This document shows, piece by piece, positions 959 through 12,854 of a stretch of DNA of 64,000 nt. The DNA comes from Candidatus Woesearchaeota archaeon (GTDB lineage Archaea; Nanobdellota; Nanobdellia; SCGC-AAA011-G17; PNOQ01), in contig JABIBT010000001.1 in NCBI GenBank assembly GCA_018652625.1, positions 9,563 to 73,562 of the forward strand, read 5' to 3'. The position numbers and the translations under genes are program-made. The number at the start of each line of letters is the position of its first letter. Positions within the stretch are counted from its first letter, which is position 1. The notes below the pieces were generated by a model. That model saw nothing but the letters and a program-made list of their open reading frames with translations, made no database searches and was not told the origin of the DNA.

Positions 959-2260
959 ATGAAAATAACAAAAACAGAGGTGATAGTATCAATCTTAATA
1001 GTTATAATTGTAGCCTCGGTAATTTTTCTGGCTCCAAAACCAAAACTATCAACCGGTTGCGGAGAATGTACTCCTTGGATTAATGGTACCTGTGGTTCTG
1101 GAGAATGTGAATCATTGGAGATGAAACAAGGTAGAACTTGTTATGGTGATTATTTTTCTGATGACTTTAGACAAGAGGACCCATATAACAGCCCAAGATA
1201 TAGTATAGGAAATGCTCCGCCAGGTTGTGAAAAAAGATGTATTTCAATGCCAGAAATGTGTAATACTCCTCCAGAACAACCAATAACTATCTATCCAGAA
1301 AACACAGCAACAGAAATACCAATCACGGCAAATTTATCTTGGGAATCATCAGATATAAATGAACAAGAACTACTATATGATGTTTACCTAGACACAAACC
1401 AAGAAGCACAAAATTTAGTTTCAGAAAATCAAGGTGAGACAGAATACTCATTTCAACTAGAATACTTAACAACATATTACTGGAGAATCATAGTTAATGA
1501 TTCTTACAACATAACAGAAAGTCCAATATGGTCATTTACAACAGAAGAATTAATGCAAGAAGAAGAAGAACCAGATGAATCAGGAAATAATGATCCTCCA
1601 TCTAACAACGGAGATTCACCATATGAATGTACAAATAATGAGGAATCTTGTCAAGAAAACATCTTAGTAATTTGCTTAAATAAAGAATGGCAAGTAGTAC
1701 AAGTATGTGAAAATGGTTGCGAAAATAATGCTTGTATAGAAGAACCATTATTTGATATAAAGGTCTCTTTAAACGAAAACTCAGAAAACATTTACGTAGA
1801 AGATAAAGTAGAATTCAGTATAGTGTTATATAATTTTGGAACTCTAAATCCAGTAGATGTATTTCTACAATGTTCTTTAGAAGACTTTGAAAAAAACAAA
1901 TTAGATTTTTTTGAAGAAACTTTAGCAGTAGACTTACAAACTTCAATAAAAAGAAATCTAAAATTCCCAGAAGAAACCCAAAAAGGAGAGTATATCTTAT
2001 CTTGTTACTTAACGTATAAAGAAGAAACAATTTCCTCTAGTGAATTAATAAATATTTTAGAAAAGCCACATGAAGAACACCCAAAAGGAGTAATAAACTT
2101 TAATCTGATTCTTTATTTAATAATATCCTTGGTTTTAATAATAACAATAATAATCTTTATAAATAAAAGAAAAAAGACAAAAGCATGGAGGAAAAAAATT
2201 GGAAATAGAAAGCATAGATCTACCAAAACAACTAGTAGAAAACATAAGAAGGGTAGTTGA
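959..2260 (+). CDS. Membrane-anchored Cys-rich surface protein with an FN3/Ig-like module
   Basis: 433 aa. N-terminal TM helix, Cys-rich modules (CGECTPW.., CTNNEESC..C..C..GC..C), FN3-like stretch (ANLSWESS...YYWRIIV...WSFTT), acidic linker, C-terminal TM helix plus basic tail. Confidence 0.6.
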   Translation: MKITKTEVIVSILIVIIVASVIFLAPKPKLSTGCGECTPWINGTCGSGECESLEMKQGRTCYGDYFSDDFRQEDPYNSPRYSIGNAPPGCEKRCISMPEMCNTPPEQPITIYPENTATEIPITANLSWESSDINEQELLYDVYLDTNQEAQNLVSENQGETEYSFQLEYLTTYYWRIIVNDSYNITESPIWSFTTEELMQEEEEPDESGNNDPPSNNGDSPYECTNNEESCQENILVICLNKEWQVVQVCENGCENNACIEEPLFDIKVSLNENSENIYVEDKVEFSIVLYNFGTLNPVDVFLQCSLEDFEKNKLDFFEETLAVDLQTSIKRNLKFPEETQKGEYILSCYLTYKEETISSSELINILEKPHEEHPKGVINFNLILYLIISLVLIITIIIFINKRKKTKAWRKKIGNRKHRSTKTTSRKHKKGS

Positions 2261-4930: not shown

Positions 4931-5553
4931 AAAACACATTAATAAAATTTTGGAAAAATAGTTATAATTTTGACAAAAAAATTATGTTGGCCTTTAGGGA
5001 TATTCCAAGAGAAAAATTTGTTCTTAAAAAATATAAAAATGAAGCATACGCAGACATGGCATTGCCTCTTTTAATGGGTCAAACAATTTCTCAACCAACA
5101 ACAATAATGATAATGTTAAACGCTCTAGAAGTAAAAAGAGGAGAAAACGTCTTAGAAATTGGTACTGGATCTGGCTACCAAACCGCATTATTATCTAAAC
5201 TAGTTGGACCAAGGGGTAAAGTTACAAGTTTAGAAGTTTTACCAGAACTAATTGATTTCGCTAAAAAAAATTTAAGGAAAATAAAATTAGATAAAAATAT
5301 AAAAATTGTAAAAATAGATGGTTCAAAAGGATATGAAAAATTTGCACCTTATGATAAAATAATTGTAGCAGCCGCATCTCCCAAAATAAATCAAGTATTA
5401 CTTAGTCAATTAATAAGGGAGGGAGTTATGGTGCTTCCAGTTGGGAAAATATATGAACAAAAACTATTGAAAATAACAAAAAGTAGAGACCTTAGAACTG
5501 AAAATTTAGGAGAATTCTTATTTGTTCCTTTGCGTGGAGAGAATGGATATTAA
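4927..5553 (+). CDS. pcm: Protein-L-isoaspartate O-methyltransferase
   Basis: GQTISQPTTIMIMLNALEV and the SAM motif VLEIGTGSGYQTALL. 208 aa. TTG start overlapping the upstream stop. Confidence 0.85.
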   Translation: MKNTLIKFWKNSYNFDKKIMLAFRDIPREKFVLKKYKNEAYADMALPLLMGQTISQPTTIMIMLNALEVKRGENVLEIGTGSGYQTALLSKLVGPRGKVTSLEVLPELIDFAKKNLRKIKLDKNIKIVKIDGSKGYEKFAPYDKIIVAAASPKINQVLLSQLIREGVMVLPVGKIYEQKLLKITKSRDLRTENLGEFLFVPLRGENGY

Positions 5554-7463
5554 ACTAATTGTTCTTTAATCACATCTACACATCCAGGATTAACCAAGGT
5601 ACTTACACCACCAAGAGATTCTTTAGTCAACAAATTTCTTAAAATTCTTCTCATGATTTTTCCACTCCTAGTCTTAGGCAAATCTTCAACGAAATAGATT
5701 TTATTCAAACCAGCAATAGGTCCAATTTTACTTCTAATCAATTTAATCAAACTTTTTTCTAATTCTTTACTAGCTTTACCTTTCTCCAAAACAACGAAAG
5801 CAACAGGAACTTCACCACGAATCTTATCGGGAATACCAACTACAGCACTCTCATTAACAAACTTATCGCCATTAAGAACATTTTCCATCTCGGCAGTACT
5901 TAATCTATGGCCTGCAACCTTAATTACATCATCAATTCTTCCAGTTATGCGGATATTATCTTTATCATAATAAAAAGCACCATCACTTGTATCATATTTT
6001 CCTTTAAATCTCTTCCAATAAGTTTCCCTGTATCTTTTCTTATTTCTAAATATTCCTTGTAACATAGCCGGAGCAAAAGGACTTAATTGAACTAAAAAAC
6101 CTTTTTTACTTTTTCTTCCTTTTTCATTAACAACTTCATGTTTTATCCCGGGGAAACTTCTTCCAGCAACTCCGGGAATGAAAGGACCAACTCCGGGCAA
6201 GGCATTAACCATATTTGCCCCCGTTTCAGTTTGCCACCAGGTATCGATAATCGGACATCTTCCTTTACCTATTTTATTAAAGTACCAATTCCAAGCATCA
6301 CTATCAATTGGCTCTCCAACAGTTCCAAGTACTTTTAGACTATCTAATTTATATTTATTAACCCATTTTTCCCCAAGTCGCATAAACATTCTTATTGCAG
6401 TAGGAGCAGTATAAAACGAAGTAACTTTATTTTCATCAACAATTTTCCACCATCTTCCAGGATTAGGATAATCTAAGCCGCCTTCATACAAAACTAAAGT
6501 TCCTCCTAAAGATAATGGGCCATAACAAGAATAAGTGTGCCCAGTAATCCAACCAATATCAGCAGTACACCAAATAACATCTTTTTCAAGTAAATTAAAA
6601 TTCCATTTTGTGCTCCAATATGCCTGCGTTAAATAACCACCAGTATCATGCATAATCCCCTTAGGGTTTCCAGTTGTTCCACTAGTATATAGGATAAACA
6701 AAGTATCATTAGAGTTCATAATTTCGGGTTCACAATATTGTTCAACCTTTTTGGATTCTTTTTCAAAAGAAACAAATTTATTATTATATTTAATTTTTTT
6801 ATTTAGTCTGTTTACAACAACAACTTTTTTTATTTTTGTTCCTTTAATCCCACTTTTAGCTTTTTTCAATAAATCTTTTTTCTCTCCTTTTCTATAATAC
6901 CCATCAGAAGTTATCAAAACCTTACTTTTTCCATCTTTTATTCTTGTTTTCAAAGCCTCATCAGAAAAAGCAGAGAAAACAACACTATGTATGGCTCCAA
7001 TCCTTGCACAAGCTAACATAGAGATAATTAATTCTGGTATTAAAGGTAGATATATACTAACAACATCTCCCTTTTTTACTTTTAAAGATTTCAAAACATT
7101 AGCAAACCTATTCACTTTTTTGTATAGGTCCATATAAGTTATTTTTTGTGTCTTTTCTTTAGTTGACTCTGGAACAAAAATTACAGCATCCTTCATACTT
7201 CTAATATTAATATGCCTGTCTAAACAATTAAAACTTGCATTTAGTTTTCCACCTTTGAACCATTCAAAATAAGGTAACTTTTCTTCATAGGTTTTATCCC
7301 AAAGTTTTTCCCAGTATAAACCTTGCTTAGCTAAATTGTCCCAAAACTTTATAGGGTTCTTTTTAGCTTCTTTGTAAATAGAATCAGATTTGATCCAGGC
7401 AATTTTTTTCATTTCATCACTAGGGTAATATTTATCACCTTTTTTTACAACATACTTAACCAT
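5550..7463 (-). CDS. acs: Acetyl-CoA synthetase (AMP-forming acyl-CoA ligase)
   Basis: 637 aa. AMP-binding motif YTSGTTGNPKG, WWQTETG, C-terminal PKTRSGKIMRR. Confidence 0.9.
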   Translation of the reverse strand: MVKYVVKKGDKYYPSDEMKKIAWIKSDSIYKEAKKNPIKFWDNLAKQGLYWEKLWDKTYEEKLPYFEWFKGGKLNASFNCLDRHINIRSMKDAVIFVPESTKEKTQKITYMDLYKKVNRFANVLKSLKVKKGDVVSIYLPLIPELIISMLACARIGAIHSVVFSAFSDEALKTRIKDGKSKVLITSDGYYRKGEKKDLLKKAKSGIKGTKIKKVVVVNRLNKKIKYNNKFVSFEKESKKVEQYCEPEIMNSNDTLFILYTSGTTGNPKGIMHDTGGYLTQAYWSTKWNFNLLEKDVIWCTADIGWITGHTYSCYGPLSLGGTLVLYEGGLDYPNPGRWWKIVDENKVTSFYTAPTAIRMFMRLGEKWVNKYKLDSLKVLGTVGEPIDSDAWNWYFNKIGKGRCPIIDTWWQTETGANMVNALPGVGPFIPGVAGRSFPGIKHEVVNEKGRKSKKGFLVQLSPFAPAMLQGIFRNKKRYRETYWKRFKGKYDTSDGAFYYDKDNIRITGRIDDVIKVAGHRLSTAEMENVLNGDKFVNESAVVGIPDKIRGEVPVAFVVLEKGKASKELEKSLIKLIRSKIGPIAGLNKIYFVEDLPKTRSGKIMRRILRNLLTKESLGGVSTLVNPGCVDVIKEQLV

Positions 7464-8055
7464 TTATAGACCTCTCCAAAAATTTTCTTTTCTCTTTAGT
7501 TCCTTTATCCCAAAGCATTCTAGTATATCCAGTATTATCAATTTGACTTGGTTTTATATCAAGTTCTTTCAAAACTCTAAGAATCTTTCTACGACCTTTT
7601 TTCATTTCACGAGGTTTACACAAATATTCAATCTCCATAAAATAACCAAGATGTTTTACTCTGTTTATTTCAATAGAAATTCTTTTGTCTTTTTTATGCT
7701 TGTAAGTTTCATTCCATTTAATTTTTCTAACCCATTCAACAAAATTCAAATCATTAAACAACGTAAGAAGTGACTCTACTTCGTCTTTTCCTTTTAATTG
7801 AAACTCAAATTCTTTCTTAACAACAATTTCTTTTGTCCAATACTTCTTTAGATGTTTTTTAAAATTTACTTCAAACTTATTTTTCATAGCTCTTATTCTG
7901 AAAGCTTTTTTTGGATAACCTTTACTTTTAATAGCAAAATAATCATCAGCCTTTTTACCTCTTGCTTTAAACCTTGCAATTCTTTTAATTTTCTCTCTAA
8001 GTTCAGGAACATCAGAACTATTTAGTTTAACTTTGGTTTCAACTTCAAGCCACAT
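7456..8055 (-). CDS. CYTH-domain protein (class IV adenylyl cyclase / triphosphate tunnel metalloenzyme family)
   Basis: N-terminal LEVETKVKL (ExExK), FRIR, and LGYFMEIEY near the C-terminus. Overlaps the acs start by 8 nt. Confidence 0.65.
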   Translation of the reverse strand: MWLEVETKVKLNSSDVPELREKIKRIARFKARGKKADDYFAIKSKGYPKKAFRIRAMKNKFEVNFKKHLKKYWTKEIVVKKEFEFQLKGKDEVESLLTLFNDLNFVEWVRKIKWNETYKHKKDKRISIEINRVKHLGYFMEIEYLCKPREMKKGRRKILRVLKELDIKPSQIDNTGYTRMLWDKGTKEKRKFLERSING

Positions 8056-8132: not shown

Positions 8133-9641
8133 ATGAGGTTAAGTGTTCTTATTGGTGGTAAAGCAGGTCAAGGTATAAATAAAGTATCACAAATAATTTC
8201 TCAGGTGCTAACCAAACACGGATATTACATATTTAACTATAGAGACTACCCTTCTTTAATTAGGGGAGGACATAATTTTAATGTATTAAACATATCAGAC
8301 AAACAAATCAGTAGTCATGAAAGCAAAATCAATTGTATCTTGGCCATGGACGACAATACAATAAAACTCCACAAAAAAGAATTAACAAAAAAAGGATTAA
8401 TAATAGATTATAAAGAATTCAAAGACCTAGGGAGAAATATAAATATTGCTCTAGCAGGAGCCTTCATTAAAACCTTGGGAATAGAAAAAAAATACTTGAT
8501 TGATGAAATAATAAAAGAATTTAATACTAAGGAAACAAATCAGGCAGCTGAAAAAGGATACAATTCGGAGAAAGAATTATTCCATCTTAAAAAATTAAAA
8601 AATAAAATCAAAGTAATGAGCGGCTCACAAGCTGTAGCAACTGGAGCAATTAATTCAAAGATAGACAGATATATTGCATATCCTATGACTCCCGCAACCG
8701 GAGTTATGCATGTTTTAGCAGCAAATCAAAAAAAGAATAATTTCATAGTTTTTCAACCAGAGAATGAAATAGCAGTTGTAAACGCAGCCCTAGGTTCAAG
8801 TTTTACTGGAAAAAGAACGATGATTGGCACATCTGGAGGAGGTTTCGATTTAATGACAGAAGGTCTAAGCTTGCAAGGGATGACAGAAATTCCATTAGTT
8901 GTTTATTTAGCAGCAAGGCCCGGTCCCGGAACAGGAACTCCAACCTACACAATTCAAGGAGATATTAATATTGCTTTAAGAGGAGGACATGGAGAATTTC
9001 CAAGAATAGTTGTTATACCTGGAGATCCAAATGAAGCAATAGAAAAAACAAATGAAGCTTTCTACTTATCAGAAAAATTCAACAGTCTATCAATTGTATT
9101 ATCTGACAAACATTTAGCAGAATCAGAATTTAGTGTAAGAGGTAAACCCAATAAAACAATTATTCCAAAAATCAACAGAAATATTCCTGGAAAAACAATA
9201 GTAAAAGCTTCGGGATATGAACATGATAAATTTGGAAATACTACTGAAGATGCAACTCTCTTAAAGAGAAATGCAGAAGCTAGAATAATTAAATATCAAA
9301 AAATAAAAAAAGAAGCTAAAAGATTTGAAATGATAAAAATCCATGGGAAGAAAAACAGTAAAAATTTAATTATTGGATGTGGCTCAACAAAAGGAGCAAT
9401 ATTGGATGCAATAGAAGGGAAAGATTTCAAATTTCTACAAGTATTATATTTAATGCCAATTTCAGATGAAATAAGAAAAGAAATCAAAAAAGCAAAGAAA
9501 GTAATTCTAGTAGAAAATAATCTAACCGGACAATTAGGAAGGTTAATCAGAGAAAAAACCGGAATAAAAATAAAAAATAGAATACTAAAATATGATGGAA
9601 GACCATTTTTGTCAGACGAACTAAGAAGAGAGTTAAAATGA
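8133..9641 (+). CDS. 2-oxoacid:ferredoxin oxidoreductase, fused gamma-alpha subunit
   Basis: N-terminal gamma-type segment IGGKAGQGINKVSQI...RGGHN, followed by alpha-type GSQAVATGAI...YPMTPATG. 502 aa. Confidence 0.85.
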   Translation: MRLSVLIGGKAGQGINKVSQIISQVLTKHGYYIFNYRDYPSLIRGGHNFNVLNISDKQISSHESKINCILAMDDNTIKLHKKELTKKGLIIDYKEFKDLGRNINIALAGAFIKTLGIEKKYLIDEIIKEFNTKETNQAAEKGYNSEKELFHLKKLKNKIKVMSGSQAVATGAINSKIDRYIAYPMTPATGVMHVLAANQKKNNFIVFQPENEIAVVNAALGSSFTGKRTMIGTSGGGFDLMTEGLSLQGMTEIPLVVYLAARPGPGTGTPTYTIQGDINIALRGGHGEFPRIVVIPGDPNEAIEKTNEAFYLSEKFNSLSIVLSDKHLAESEFSVRGKPNKTIIPKINRNIPGKTIVKASGYEHDKFGNTTEDATLLKRNAEARIIKYQKIKKEAKRFEMIKIHGKKNSKNLIIGCGSTKGAILDAIEGKDFKFLQVLYLMPISDEIRKEIKKAKKVILVENNLTGQLGRLIREKTGIKIKNRILKYDGRPFLSDELRRELK

Positions 9642-10420
9642 ATCTAAATACAAAAAATATAAACACATGGTGTCCAGGATGCCCAAATAACTTAATTTTA
9701 GAATCTACTAAACAAGCCATAAAATCACTAATCAAAGAAGGATATAAACATAAAAATTTTGCAATGGTCGCAGGAATAGGTTGCCATGCAAAAATATTCG
9801 ATTATATTAATTTAAGTGGAATTTACACATTACACGGAAGAGTTATACCTACGATGTTAGGAATAAATGTAGGAAACCCAAAATTAAATGTAATAGGATT
9901 CGCAGGAGATGGAGATACTTATTCAGAAGGTCTTGCTCATTTTATTAGTGCAGGCAGATATAACGCAAATACTACTTTAATAGTTCATAATAATCAATCA
10001 TTTTCATTAACAACCGGTCAAGTAACTCCTACTTCACAACATGGATTCACAGCAAAATCTGAGCCATTTGGGAACAAAAATAAGCCATTAAACCCAATAA
10101 GATTGGCATTATCTTCAGGAGCTACGTTCGTAGCTAGATGTAACGCAAATGATCTAAAACACACAGCAAGTATCATAAAACAAGCAATAAAACACAAAGG
10201 TTTTTCATTTGTAGATATAATTCAAAACTGTTTAATCTTCAACTTAGATATGAATAAATTAGACAAGCACATGTACAAAATAAGCAATAAAAACAACATA
10301 AAAAAAGCTTTTGAATTAGCAGATAAGTGGGATTATAATTCCAATAAAGGAAAGATACCGGTTGGAATCTTCTATAAAGAAAAAAGAAAAACTTTAGATG
10401 AGAACTTAAAAAGTGGATAA
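9638..10420 (+). CDS. 2-oxoacid:ferredoxin oxidoreductase, beta (TPP-binding) subunit
   Basis: WCPGCPNN cluster motif and GDGDTYSEG TPP motif. ATGA overlap with the alpha gene. Confidence 0.9.
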   Translation: MNLNTKNINTWCPGCPNNLILESTKQAIKSLIKEGYKHKNFAMVAGIGCHAKIFDYINLSGIYTLHGRVIPTMLGINVGNPKLNVIGFAGDGDTYSEGLAHFISAGRYNANTTLIVHNNQSFSLTTGQVTPTSQHGFTAKSEPFGNKNKPLNPIRLALSSGATFVARCNANDLKHTASIIKQAIKHKGFSFVDIIQNCLIFNLDMNKLDKHMYKISNKNNIKKAFELADKWDYNSNKGKIPVGIFYKEKRKTLDENLKSG

Positions 10421-11249
10421 AAACAATATTCCAAAGATTGAAAAAGAACTTAAGAAAAAAACAAAGATGGTAGCACTAGTCGCTCCAAGTTTTATAACAG
10501 ATTTTGATTATCCTTCTATTTTAACACAATTAAAAAAATTAGGTTTTGATAAATCAGTAGAGTTGACCTTCGGAGCAAAGATGGTTAATCGAGAGTATCA
10601 CAAACAACTAAAAAATTCTAAAAAGTTGTTAATAGCTTCAACATGCCCGGGGATTGTAGAAACCATAAAATTGAGATATCCAAAATATGTAAAGAATTTA
10701 GCAAAAATAGATAGCCCAATGATAGCAACAGGAAAAATTTGTAGAAAAATATATCCAAAACACAAAACAGTTTTCTTATCTCCTTGTGACTATAAAAAAT
10801 TAGAAGCTCAAAAATCAAAGCATATAGATTATGTAATAGATTATGAACAACTTGGAGAGCTATTCAAGAAACATAAAATAAAAAAGAGCAAAGATAAAAA
10901 ACTCTTTGATAAGTTCTACAATGATTATACAAAAATATATCCGTTAGAAGGAGGATTGGCAAAAACAGCACATTTGAAAGGGATCATAAGAAAAGATGAA
11001 ATAAAAAGCATCTCGGGGATAAAAAAAGTCATGAAATTTTTAGATAACCCAGACCCAAAAATAAGATTTTTAGACGTACTTTTCTGCGTAGGCGGATGTA
11101 TAGGTGGACCTAAAACAACAAAAAAATTAACAATAGCTCAAAAAAAGAAAAAAGTTTTAAGTTATCTAGAGAAATCCAAGAAAGAAGACATTCCTAAAGG
11201 AAAAAAAGGCACATTAGAAAAAGCAAAAGGAATCAAATTTACATATTAA
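10413..11249 (+). CDS. [FeFe]-hydrogenase H-domain-like protein (Fe_hyd_lg_C type), very short
   Basis: 278 aa. H-cluster-like motifs ASTCPG (L1-like, Cys78), LSPCDYKKLEA (L2-like, Cys125) and DVLFCVGGCIGGP (L3-like, Cys225/229), plus DSPMIATGK and LEGGLAKTA. GTG start overlaps the beta-subunit stop by 8 nt. Confidence 0.6.
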   Translation: MDKNNIPKIEKELKKKTKMVALVAPSFITDFDYPSILTQLKKLGFDKSVELTFGAKMVNREYHKQLKNSKKLLIASTCPGIVETIKLRYPKYVKNLAKIDSPMIATGKICRKIYPKHKTVFLSPCDYKKLEAQKSKHIDYVIDYEQLGELFKKHKIKKSKDKKLFDKFYNDYTKIYPLEGGLAKTAHLKGIIRKDEIKSISGIKKVMKFLDNPDPKIRFLDVLFCVGGCIGGPKTTKKLTIAQKKKKVLSYLEKSKKEDIPKGKKGTLEKAKGIKFTY

Positions 11250-12121
11250 CCAGTTATAATAAATATAGCACCAAGAATCAGTACTGCAGTTGCCAAAACT
11301 CTTCTCAAAAGACTATGATCATTAAACAAACTTCCTCCAATTAGCACAGCAAAAAACACAGAAACTCTCTTTAATGACAATACAAGAGCAACTGAAGCAG
11401 CCTTAACCGCTTCTATCTGAGCATATCTATAAGTAATTGTCAAAAACGCCAATGGAAGTATCCATTTCCAAGAATTTTTTAGAGGCTTAGCTACCTCTTT
11501 AATTTTCCCACTAAATAAAACAATTGCAATAAATACTATGGCCAAAAATAAATGTTGAAAACCCATAAATGCAAAAACTGGAAGTTTAAAATTCTTAAGC
11601 AATGCTTTATCAAGAATAGACGTTATTGTAAATAAAACCAACGCTCCAATAATATATTTATGTCCTTTTGACTTCAAAAAAATTCTGAAAGGATCTAAGA
11701 ATTTTTGATTTAATTTAAGTTGTAGAATATATGTTCCTCCTAACAATAAAAGCATCCCAATTAACTCAATTCCACTCAACACTTCCTTTAAGAAAATAAA
11801 TGCAAAGAAAGCAACAAAACCCGGAGTTAAAACGAGCAAAGGCAAGGCATTACTTATTTCTAAATTTTTAATACCCAGCATTACACAAAGAAATGCAAAG
11901 GCTCCGAGAATCGATTTAAAAAATAAAACAAGTAAACTAATTGAAGAAACACTAGACATATCAATGAAAAAGAAAAAAGGAATAGCTAAAACTAAATTAA
12001 ATATTGCCAAAGCAGTAGAAAACGCTAAAGCTTTTTCTTTGAACAATACTTTTTTTTCAAAGATTGCAGCACTAGCTGAAAATAATGCAGAAACTAAAGC
12101 AAGTACATACCATTCAATCAT
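11246..12121 (-). CDS. DMT/EamA-family transporter
   Basis: 291 aa with about 10 hydrophobic helices in two similar halves, the typical EamA topology. Confidence 0.7.
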   Translation of the reverse strand: MIEWYVLALVSALFSASAAIFEKKVLFKEKALAFSTALAIFNLVLAIPFFFFIDMSSVSSISLLVLFFKSILGAFAFLCVMLGIKNLEISNALPLLVLTPGFVAFFAFIFLKEVLSGIELIGMLLLLGGTYILQLKLNQKFLDPFRIFLKSKGHKYIIGALVLFTITSILDKALLKNFKLPVFAFMGFQHLFLAIVFIAIVLFSGKIKEVAKPLKNSWKWILPLAFLTITYRYAQIEAVKAASVALVLSLKRVSVFFAVLIGGSLFNDHSLLRRVLATAVLILGAIFIITG

Positions 12122-12297
12122 TTTATTTTTATTGCATTAGTAGGACAACTATCTTTCGCTTTTTTATTACACCCAACAGTTTTCGGATTTGGATTTTTTA
12201 CCCTTGCTTTACCTTCAATTAATTCAAAATTATCACATAAAGCAACACAAGATCCACAACCAATACACTTCTTTTTATCAACACTAACTTTTACCAT
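12118..12297 (-). CDS. Small single-cluster [4Fe-4S]/[3Fe-4S] ferredoxin (59 aa), not in ORF track
   Basis: Own translation: MVKVSVDKKKCIGCGSCVALCDNFELIEGKARVKNPNPKTVGCNKKAKDSCPTNAIKIK. The Cys pattern C11-x2-C14-x2-C17-x3-C21...C43...C51-P matches Pyrococcus-type ferredoxin. Its TGA overlaps the EamA ATG (ATGA). Confidence 0.7.
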   Translation of the reverse strand: MVKVSVDKKKCIGCGSCVALCDNFELIEGKARVKNPNPKTVGCNKKAKDSCPTNAIKIK

Positions 12298-12335: not shown

Positions 12336-12590
12336 TTAAATCTTATTATAAATATTTTTTCTATGTCCAATTCTCAATACAATAATTTTATTTCCTTTTA
12401 CAATAACATCAATAATTGATCTATAATCACCAGTTCTTAGTCTCCATAATTTCTTACCTTGAAGTCTTTTTATATGACTAAATGGGTTATGTCTTATACT
12501 ATAAATTTTTCTCAATATATCTCTTTTAATATTAGAATTTAATTTTTTTAAATCTTTCAGGGCCCTTCTAGAAATACTAATAGTGTACAT
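12336..12590 (-). CDS. relE: RelE/ParE-family toxin
   Basis: 84 aa with the ...LWRLRTGDYRSI..V....I.VLRIGHRKNIY pattern. Starts 1 nt after the antitoxin stop. Confidence 0.8.
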   Translation of the reverse strand: MYTISISRRALKDLKKLNSNIKRDILRKIYSIRHNPFSHIKRLQGKKLWRLRTGDYRSIIDVIVKGNKIIVLRIGHRKNIYNKI

Positions 12591-12591
12591 T

Positions 12592-12825
12592 TTATTTTAG
12601 ATCTATCCCAAATTCATTAGCAACTTCCTCGATTGAGTAGACTCTCCCAGCCCTTACATCTTCTAAACCTTCTTTAATCTCCTCAATTTCTTTTTCAGTA
12701 AGAATTTCTGCTCCAGTTTCATCAATCATATTATTGATTAATTCATCATAACTAACTCTAGAAGATGTTTTTAAGTCTTTCAACCTTTCTAATGTAGTAT
12801 CCTTTATTTGTATAGTTGTATTCAT
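12592..12825 (-). CDS. Antitoxin (RHH-like N-terminus) partnered with RelE
   Basis: Small acidic protein directly upstream of relE. I prefer the ATG at 12823-12825 over the GTG at 12832-12834 used by the track. N-terminal TIQIKDTTLERLK fits a beta-strand DNA-binding start. Confidence 0.65.
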   Translation of the reverse strand: MNTTIQIKDTTLERLKDLKTSSRVSYDELINNMIDETGAEILTEKEIEEIKEGLEDVRAGRVYSIEEVANEFGIDLK

Positions 12826-12832
12826 GTTATAC

Positions 12833-12854
12833 ACTACTATATAACTACTATATA
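12833..12854 (-). promoter_or_regulatory. Tandem 11-nt repeat (ACTACTATATA x2) overlapping TATA-like sequence upstream of the antitoxin
   Basis: The plus strand reads actactatata actactatata at 12833-12843 and 12844-12854, 8 nt upstream of the ATG. The distal TATA lies about 26 nt from the ATG, compatible with a leaderless transcript and an autoregulatory operator. Confidence 0.45.

Follow-up and report, generated by a model that had tools for sequence, protein, structure and literature searches.

A probable group E [FeFe]-hydrogenase encoded in tandem with a two-subunit 2-oxoacid:ferredoxin oxidoreductase in a DPANN archaeon

The subject of this analysis is a 64,000-nucleotide stretch of DNA (hereafter the window; part of contig JABIBT010000001.1, GenBank assembly GCA_018652625.1, labeled Candidatus Woesearchaeota archaeon) and, within it, hydA, a gene for a 278-aa protein. 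Judged from its sequence, HydA very likely belongs to the group E ("ultraminimal") [FeFe]-hydrogenases; its source is a DPANN archaeon, and it probably releases electrons derived from a 2-oxoacid:ferredoxin oxidoreductase (OFOR) as H2. A first-pass annotation of the window had offered two options for the protein, an ultra-small [FeFe]-hydrogenase on the one hand and a Nar1-like scaffold on the other, and had pointed to a 2024 report by Greening and co-workers on very small hydrogenases of DPANN archaea. That report exists and covers exactly the class of HydA. Greening et al. (Cell 2024; PMC11216029) defined group E as monomeric [FeFe]-hydrogenases that consist of an H-domain and have a mean length of 286 aa, with the DPANN archaea Nanoarchaeota, Iainarchaeota, and Micrarchaeota as hosts. 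In that account, group E is the sister of group C, deviates in its proton-transferring residues, and in Nanoarchaeota is often encoded next to OFOR genes. The class, its DPANN host range, and its link to OFOR were already published in 2024, and HydA, as one of more than 1000 similar sequences, leaves current understanding unchanged. What it adds is a threonine variant at the proton-relay position and an unusually tight overlap between hydA and the OFOR genes.

No smaller H2 catalysts are known than the group E enzymes, which reach only about 60% of the length of Chlamydomonas HydA1, and they are attractive as minimal scaffolds for biohydrogen and for H-cluster function without the canonical relay or known maturases. 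Two of them serve here for comparison. The enzyme of 'Ca. Forterrea multitransposorum' (Fm) holds a single [4Fe-4S] cluster and builds its H-cluster from [2Fe]adt; the Hox, HoxH, and Hred' states were observed, and the enzyme produces H2 with a bias toward H+ reduction (PMC11216029). The other, Na, is a Nanoarchaeota enzyme. A metatranscriptome paper on Woesearchaeota (PMC11606122) deals with group A3 enzymes and was uninformative for group E.

Domain, fold, and pocket residues of HydA

The hydA open reading frame (ORF) begins with a GTG codon inside the last codons of the OFOR beta gene and overlaps the OFOR beta stop by 8 nt (Table 1). The N-terminal residues of HydA are conserved among homologues (K3 in 153 and L13 in 178 of the 188 distinct relatives on which all residue counts are based), which supports a translation start upstream of Met19. 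A profile search, one of the checks suggested by the first-pass annotation, found a single Pfam domain, PF02906 (Fe_hyd_lg_C), with E=3.6e-40; residues 18-233 matched profile positions 2-245 of 245, and a full-profile match of this strength excludes chance. The Pfam scan detected no ferredoxin-like, accessory Fe-S, or signaling domain in HydA, and the first cysteine of the protein is C78; the absence of accessory ferredoxin-like domains had been correctly anticipated.

Residues of HydA were paired with those of the Clostridium pasteurianum enzyme CpI using HMMER (phmmer plus profile alignment). The three H-cluster motifs and the two further H-domain segments that had been proposed were all present upon direct translation, both segments aligned to stretches of CpI, and the four cysteines put forward as [4Fe-4S] ligands each paired with a CpI ligand (Table 1). 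The cysteines are separated by 47, 100, and 4 residues in HydA compared to 55, 144, and 4 in CpI, and the compression had been reported accurately.

Table 1. Positions in the window of hydA, of segments of its product, and of neighboring genes (aa, residues of HydA; NJ, neighbor-joining)
Feature	Position	Strand	Details
hydA	10413..11249	+	278 aa, H-domain only, probable group E "ultraminimal" [FeFe]-hydrogenase; ORF, PF02906, AlphaFold2 model, identity to Na, NJ tree
A24-P25-S26	10482..10490	+	aligned to CpI A230-P231-S232 (profile alignment)
L1 motif ASTCPG	10635..10652, aa 75-80	+	Cys78 = CpI C300; Thr77 = CpI C299 position
DSPMIATGK	aa 100-108		aligned to CpI 'AKSPQQIFG'
L2 motif LSPCDYKKLEA	10776..10808, aa 122-132	+	Cys125 = CpI C355; Lys128 = CpI K358; Ser123 for CpI M353
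LEGGLAKTA	aa 178-186		its start aligned to CpI 'ATGGV', at end of aligned stretch
L3 motif DVLFCVGGCIGGP	11073..11111, aa 221-233	+	Cys225 = CpI C499; Cys229 = CpI C503; Leu223 for CpI M497
OFOR alpha	8133..9641	+	502 aa, N-terminal gamma-type domain; PF01558 + PF01855; TIGR03710, 448 bits; first gene of operon
OFOR beta	9638..10420	+	260 aa, thiamine pyrophosphate and Fe-S; PF02775 + PF12367; NF008820, 277 bits
EamA transporter	11246-12121	-	convergent with hydA; the two stop codons overlap
Ferredoxin	12118..12297	-	59 aa, single-cluster; PF13459/PF13370
Acetyl-CoA synthetase, AMP-forming	5550..7463	-	637 aa; PF16177 + PF00501 + PF13193; divergent from OFOR-hydA operon

The residues expected around the cofactor are conserved almost without exception. 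C78, C125, and C229 were found in all 188 relatives and C225 in 187. K128 and the pair S101-P102 (CpI S323-P324) were likewise invariant (188/188 each), as was E131 in L2, and A24, P25, and S26 were kept in 187, 188, and 184, respectively. In CpI structures, P231 and S232 contact the proximal cyanide ligand of the 2Fe subcluster and K358 the distal one, and C503 is the cysteine that bridges the [4Fe-4S] cluster to that subcluster. By alignment, A24-P25-S26 and Lys128 of HydA occupy the CpI positions that hydrogen-bond the cyanide ligands. Cys78, Cys125, Cys225, and Cys229 are predicted to ligate the [4Fe-4S] part of the H-cluster, with Cys229 as the bridge to the di-iron subcluster. Because the residues aligned to the cyanide contacts are invariant or nearly so, the family appears to keep the 2Fe site and not just the cubane.

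The surroundings of the site differ from those in CpI. Position 77, where CpI has C299, was Pro in 82 relatives, Val in 41, Ala in 39, and Thr in 25 (187 of 188 in all); it is Val in Na, and the Thr of HydA is a minority residue. Other pocket substitutions, from CpI to HydA, are M353 to S123, M497 to L223, Q325 to M103, and S319 to A97. The canonical proton-transfer pathway of CpI has no equivalent in HydA, which has T77 at C299, A97 at S319, and Y62 at E279, and the region around CpI E282/R286 is either deleted or without reliable alignment. These proton-transfer residues are missing across the whole group E family as represented by the 188 relatives. The first-pass annotation had noted Thr in place of the proton-relay Cys and had cautioned that catalysis was not guaranteed. 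The substitution is real; as a sign of inactivity it fails, because it belongs to a family-wide trait and Fm, itself a member of group E, is active (PMC11216029). For HydA in particular, the caution about catalysis continues to apply.

An AlphaFold2 model of HydA was built on 51 sequences and is evidence at the level of the whole fold. It had a mean pLDDT (predicted local distance difference test) score of 88 and a pTM (predicted TM-score) of 0.87. In a Foldseek search of the PDB with this model, the top 50 hits listed were all [FeFe]-hydrogenases, with TMq values (TM-score for the query) of 0.67-0.78 and E of approximately 1e-15; for the first 42 listed, TMq was 0.72-0.78. The hits listed included HydA of T. 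kivui and of T. maritima, CpI (TMq up to 0.78), CbA5H, HydA2 of the hydrogen-dependent CO2 reductase (HDCR), and a Desulfovibrio enzyme. Comparison of a predicted structure with known H-domains had been recommended at the outset, and the model matches the hydrogenase H-domain fold.

Family placement and gene context

HydA is a bare H-domain with shortened loops, 278 aa in length compared to about 286 aa for group E. Its identity to Na, a hydrogenase of 288 aa (genome CABMGN01; contig CABMGN010000008.1, L061), was 54% across 278 alignment columns. When one genome was scanned for each GTDB species, 143 relatives emerged, and the genomes closest to HydA were labeled Woesearchaeota, Pacearchaeota, or Nanoarchaeota. 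More than 1300 homologues, about 280 aa in length, were found in a collection of 5.8 billion proteins; the best 120 were all 270-308 aa long, and their named sources were Pacearchaeota, Woesearchaeota, or unclassified archaeal metagenome-assembled genomes. A sequence identical to HydA had already been deposited, with the Joint Genome Institute (JGI) annotation 'iron only hydrogenase large subunit-like protein'.

When 1.84 billion cluster representatives were searched exhaustively with HMMER, the relatives fell into two tiers. The first comprised single-domain proteins of 250-316 aa in about 30 clusters, with 34-57% identity to HydA. The second comprised proteins of 550-1000 aa, 30-36% identical to HydA, with Fer4, the H-domain, FeS (PF04060), and PAS, His-kinase, or sigma-54 activator domains. 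Such a sensor architecture was found in relatives P0150, P0152, P0154, P0157, and P0207 and is not present in HydA. That the longer relatives have the architecture of group C sensors matches the published placing of group E as sister to group C (PMC11216029). One further relative, P0149, is a 4122-aa protein with 14 separate H-domain matches; it may be a giant with many H-domains, or else an artifact of assembly or gene calling.

Neighbor-joining (NJ) trees of the H-domain were built from 152 sequences with 100 bootstraps; they are crude, and they include neither labeled references for groups A, B, and D nor Fm. HydA and Na shared a clade free of multidomain proteins in 99 of the 100 bootstraps. 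A wider clade of short proteins, which includes the bacterial homologues described below, contained no more than a single long protein in 96. The best match in NCBIfam was a group B1 model; it was rejected, as the score was 151 bits against a cut-off of 450 and the match covered only the H-domain part of the model. Three loci with the label 'bacterium' or 'Fusobacteriaceae bacterium' (L066, L019, and L039) carry hydA genes whose products are 55-66% identical to HydA, and L066 also encodes a TFB-like transcription factor; these are probably mislabeled or mis-binned DPANN contigs.

The host of HydA is a DPANN archaeon, a member of the Nanoarchaeota in the GTDB sense and Woesearchaeota/Pacearchaeota-like. 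The contig is archaeal, because it carries archaeal EF-1alpha, EF-2, and S10 as identified by Pfam; it also has ORFs that, judged by sequence, encode subunits of RNA polymerase and exosome proteins. The window also matches contig JABILW010000033.1 of the NCBI metagenome-assembled genome GCA_018654305.1. An overlap of 4 nt joins OFOR alpha to OFOR beta and, together with the overlap at the start of hydA, makes a clean and compact module of three overlapping genes on the same strand, with acetyl-CoA synthetase and ferredoxin genes alongside. An AT-rich, TATA-like element lies upstream of the OFOR alpha start and may be the promoter.

Genes within 6 kb of hydA were surveyed in 80 species-level loci; many contigs were short, and all counts from this survey are lower bounds. 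OFOR beta was found near hydA in at least 37 of the 80 loci, usually upstream and on the same strand, and OFOR alpha in at least 34. Acetyl-CoA synthetase was present in at least 12 loci and EamA in at least 17. The pairing of EamA with hydA may be plain synteny of close relatives or may reflect a link to export of fermentation products. In loci with a gap of 340-1160 nt between OFOR beta and hydA, no conserved partner gene lay between them; the intervening genes were unrelated to each other (a membrane protein, a histidine phosphatase-like protein, GNAT-like proteins, one that is EamA-like judging by sequence, and one flavodoxin). The flavodoxin (PF12682; archaeal locus L073:5516-5989, + strand) was seen once and hints at another electron carrier.

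Taken together, HydA agreed with group E in every respect examined, namely identity, length, architecture, host, gene context, and NJ tree, and the ultra-small hydrogenase is the option of the first-pass annotation that these results favor. Like Fm and Na, HydA consists of an H-domain only, of about 280 aa, with condensed loops and no accessory clusters; it keeps the four ligand cysteines and lacks the proton-relay Cys, its host is a DPANN archaeon, and OFOR genes are adjacent. Unlike Na, it carries Thr in the place of CpI C299, and its gene overlaps OFOR beta, whereas the Na locus has no OFOR within 6 kb.

Compared to group A, represented by CpI, HydA has the same H-domain fold according to the model and equivalents of the four Cys, K358, P231-S232, and S323-P324. 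However, the two proteins are only about 23% identical, and HydA has neither the relay Cys of TSCCP nor the methionines of the pocket. It also lacks the CpI F-domain clusters and approximately 100-180 residues of loops and C-terminal wrap. HydA also differs from the M1 type enzyme HydA1 of Chlamydomonas (457 aa), as it has ASTCPG, SPC, and DVLFC and not TSCCP, MPC, and ExMxC; the match between the two was weak (E=6e-6 with a single sequence and 1e-8 with a profile).

Proposed electron flow, maturation, and alternative explanations

To the established fold, ligands, family placement, and gene order of HydA we add a proposed mechanism. The position of OFOR next to hydA, with acetyl-CoA synthetase and ferredoxin nearby, fits ferredoxin-dependent fermentative H2 evolution, and this is the best-supported mechanism, although its electron donor, proton route, and maturation pathway are all inferred. 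The hydA gene would be co-transcribed with the two-subunit OFOR and probably translationally coupled to it. OFOR would oxidize pyruvate or another 2-oxoacid to the acyl-CoA and reduce a small ferredoxin, possibly the 59-aa one. HydA, presumably with an occupied H-cluster near the surface in vivo, would reoxidize the ferredoxin and reduce protons to H2, and acetyl-CoA from OFOR could then be handled by the adjacent acetyl-CoA synthetase.

Several observations weigh against assigning HydA to the group E hydrogenases and against H2 evolution in the cell. T77, S123, and L223 replace the relay Cys and two pocket Met of CpI in the same way as in sensory, group C-like relatives. The tie of HydA to group E was measured through Na and not through the active enzyme, Fm. 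Activity was reported in the main text of the 2024 paper for Fm alone, which belongs to the Iainarchaeota lineage, and Na, the Nanoarchaeota enzyme, was expressed but poorly soluble (PMC11216029). A homologue of the 59-aa ferredoxin was found near hydA in only 7 of the 80 loci, which makes for a weak link. No ORF of at least 80 aa with a CX3CX2C motif, as expected of a HydE/HydG-like radical S-adenosylmethionine (SAM) maturase, was present in the 64-kb window; this search speaks for the window and says nothing on the rest of the genome. Most archaeal genomes that encode such hydrogenases, including a closed one, are reported to be without HydEFG (PMC11216029), and insertion of the 2Fe subcluster in vivo can for this reason only be presumed.

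The last two points also speak for an alternative in which HydA is an H-domain protein that carries only the [4Fe-4S] cluster. The host would have no HydEFG, the 2Fe subcluster would never be inserted, and HydA, instead of being a hydrogenase, would serve as electron-transfer partner or acceptor for the co-transcribed OFOR or would itself be a redox enzyme of another kind. The tight overlap of hydA with OFOR beta and the two-subunit form of this OFOR, which lacks a ferredoxin-like delta subunit, are in line with such a role. On the other hand, near-invariance of A24-P25-S26 and K128 in 188 relatives is hard to explain without a 2Fe site, Fm takes up [2Fe]adt and turns over H2 (PMC11216029), and OFOR adjoins hydA in only about half of the loci, so we consider this alternative unlikely. 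Even less probable is an H2-sensing or regulatory H-domain protein of low turnover, like those of the sister group C (HydS type), that would act via a partner protein. The pocket changes of HydA are indeed common to group C-like relatives, in which the C299 position is mostly non-Cys, M353 is replaced by S or G, M497 by L, and Q325 by M, and the closest non-minimal relatives are the proteins with PAS, His-kinase, or sigma-54 domains. Unlike group C, HydA has no N-terminal Fer4, no C-terminal FeS (PF04060), and no PAS, His-kinase, or sigma-54 domain, that is, neither an output domain nor an accessory cluster. Fm is biased toward H+ reduction, unlike HydS of T. maritima, which is biased toward H2 oxidation (PMC11216029). 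In addition, no conserved partner gene was seen between or beside OFOR and hydA, where the genes vary by locus, and hydA shares an operon with a catabolic oxidoreductase.

A Nar1- or NARF-like scaffold for Fe-S assembly without hydrogenase function, the other option of the first-pass annotation, is the least likely of all and can be given almost no weight. Nar1 and NARF belong to the eukaryotic cytosolic iron-sulfur protein assembly (CIA) pathway; they have an additional ferredoxin-like cluster of four Cys at the N-terminus and a region resembling a small subunit at the C-terminus. HydA has PF02906 and the four conserved Cys in common with them and likewise lacks the proton-relay Cys. However, judged against these known features, architecture and host set it apart: no Cys precedes residue 78 and hence there is no N-terminal Cys cluster, PF02906 is the only domain detected, with no Fe_hyd_SSU-type domain at the C-terminus, the host is archaeal, and HydA clusters with group E.

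A bolder version of the group E reading combines two proposals, and as a combination it is improbable: OFOR and HydA would form a complex that is matured independently of HydEFG, and group E would have been exchanged between DPANN archaea and the Candidate Phyla Radiation (CPR, or Patescibacteria). The complex could be a pyruvate:proton oxidoreductase of three polypeptides in which electrons pass from the [4Fe-4S] cluster of OFOR directly to the H-cluster with no free ferredoxin. The 8-nt overlap, the absence of a ferredoxin-like delta subunit in OFOR, and an H-cluster predicted to be exposed at the surface could point to such a complex. If the combined proposal were true, group E would not be specific to archaea and would have been exchanged between two radiations of ultra-small cells.

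Homologues in CPR bacteria and other genes of the window

Single-domain HydA homologues were also encoded on four contigs labeled as CPR bacteria, from Dojkabacteria, Microgenomates, and Saccharibacteria (L075:5992-6852, L076:1844-2740, L079:1068-1919, and L080:5891-6742). The proteins are 283-298 aa long, 42-45% identical to HydA, and fall in the short, group E-like clade (96/100 in the NJ trees). L075 is a 134-kb Dojkabacteria contig and clearly bacterial, with bL19, RNase HII, and YraN genes beside hydA. In the 2024 paper, group E figures as a clade of archaea (PMC11216029), and our literature search turned up no report of it in Patescibacteria. In the Saccharibacteria locus (L080:8894-12719, minus strand), OFOR alpha and beta genes stand beside a gene for ADP-forming acetyl-CoA synthetase (ATP-grasp_5 + Succ_CoA_lig + CoA_binding), 2-5 kb from hydA. 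Like the module of the window, this one would convert pyruvate to acetate and H2; it differs in having an ATP-yielding ligase in place of the AMP-forming acetyl-CoA synthetase.

Directly upstream of hydA, all four CPR loci encode a hydrophobic protein of 166-184 aa (L080:5323-5838, L079:515-1015, and L076:1279-1785 on the minus strand; L075:5409-5963 on the plus strand). It is apparently a multi-pass membrane protein, and its gene is divergent from hydA in three of the loci, whereas in L075 both genes share a strand. Scans of the copies in L080 and L075 gave no Pfam match, and there is no counterpart beside hydA of the window. This protein is a possible membrane partner associated with the hydrogenase.

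Other genes of the window were noted in passing. A 433-aa protein encoded at 959-2260 (+ strand) is without a Pfam match; it contains 16 cysteines and begins with a hydrophobic segment near the N-terminus. The gene for a CYTH-domain protein (7456-8055, - strand) overlaps the acetyl-CoA synthetase gene at its start, and both are divergent from the OFOR-hydA operon; the pairing recurred in only 3 of the 80 loci. Just beyond the ferredoxin gene, at 12336-12834 (- strand), a ParE-family toxin (84 aa) and an 80-aa DUF7557 protein encoded upstream of it likely form a type II toxin-antitoxin pair.

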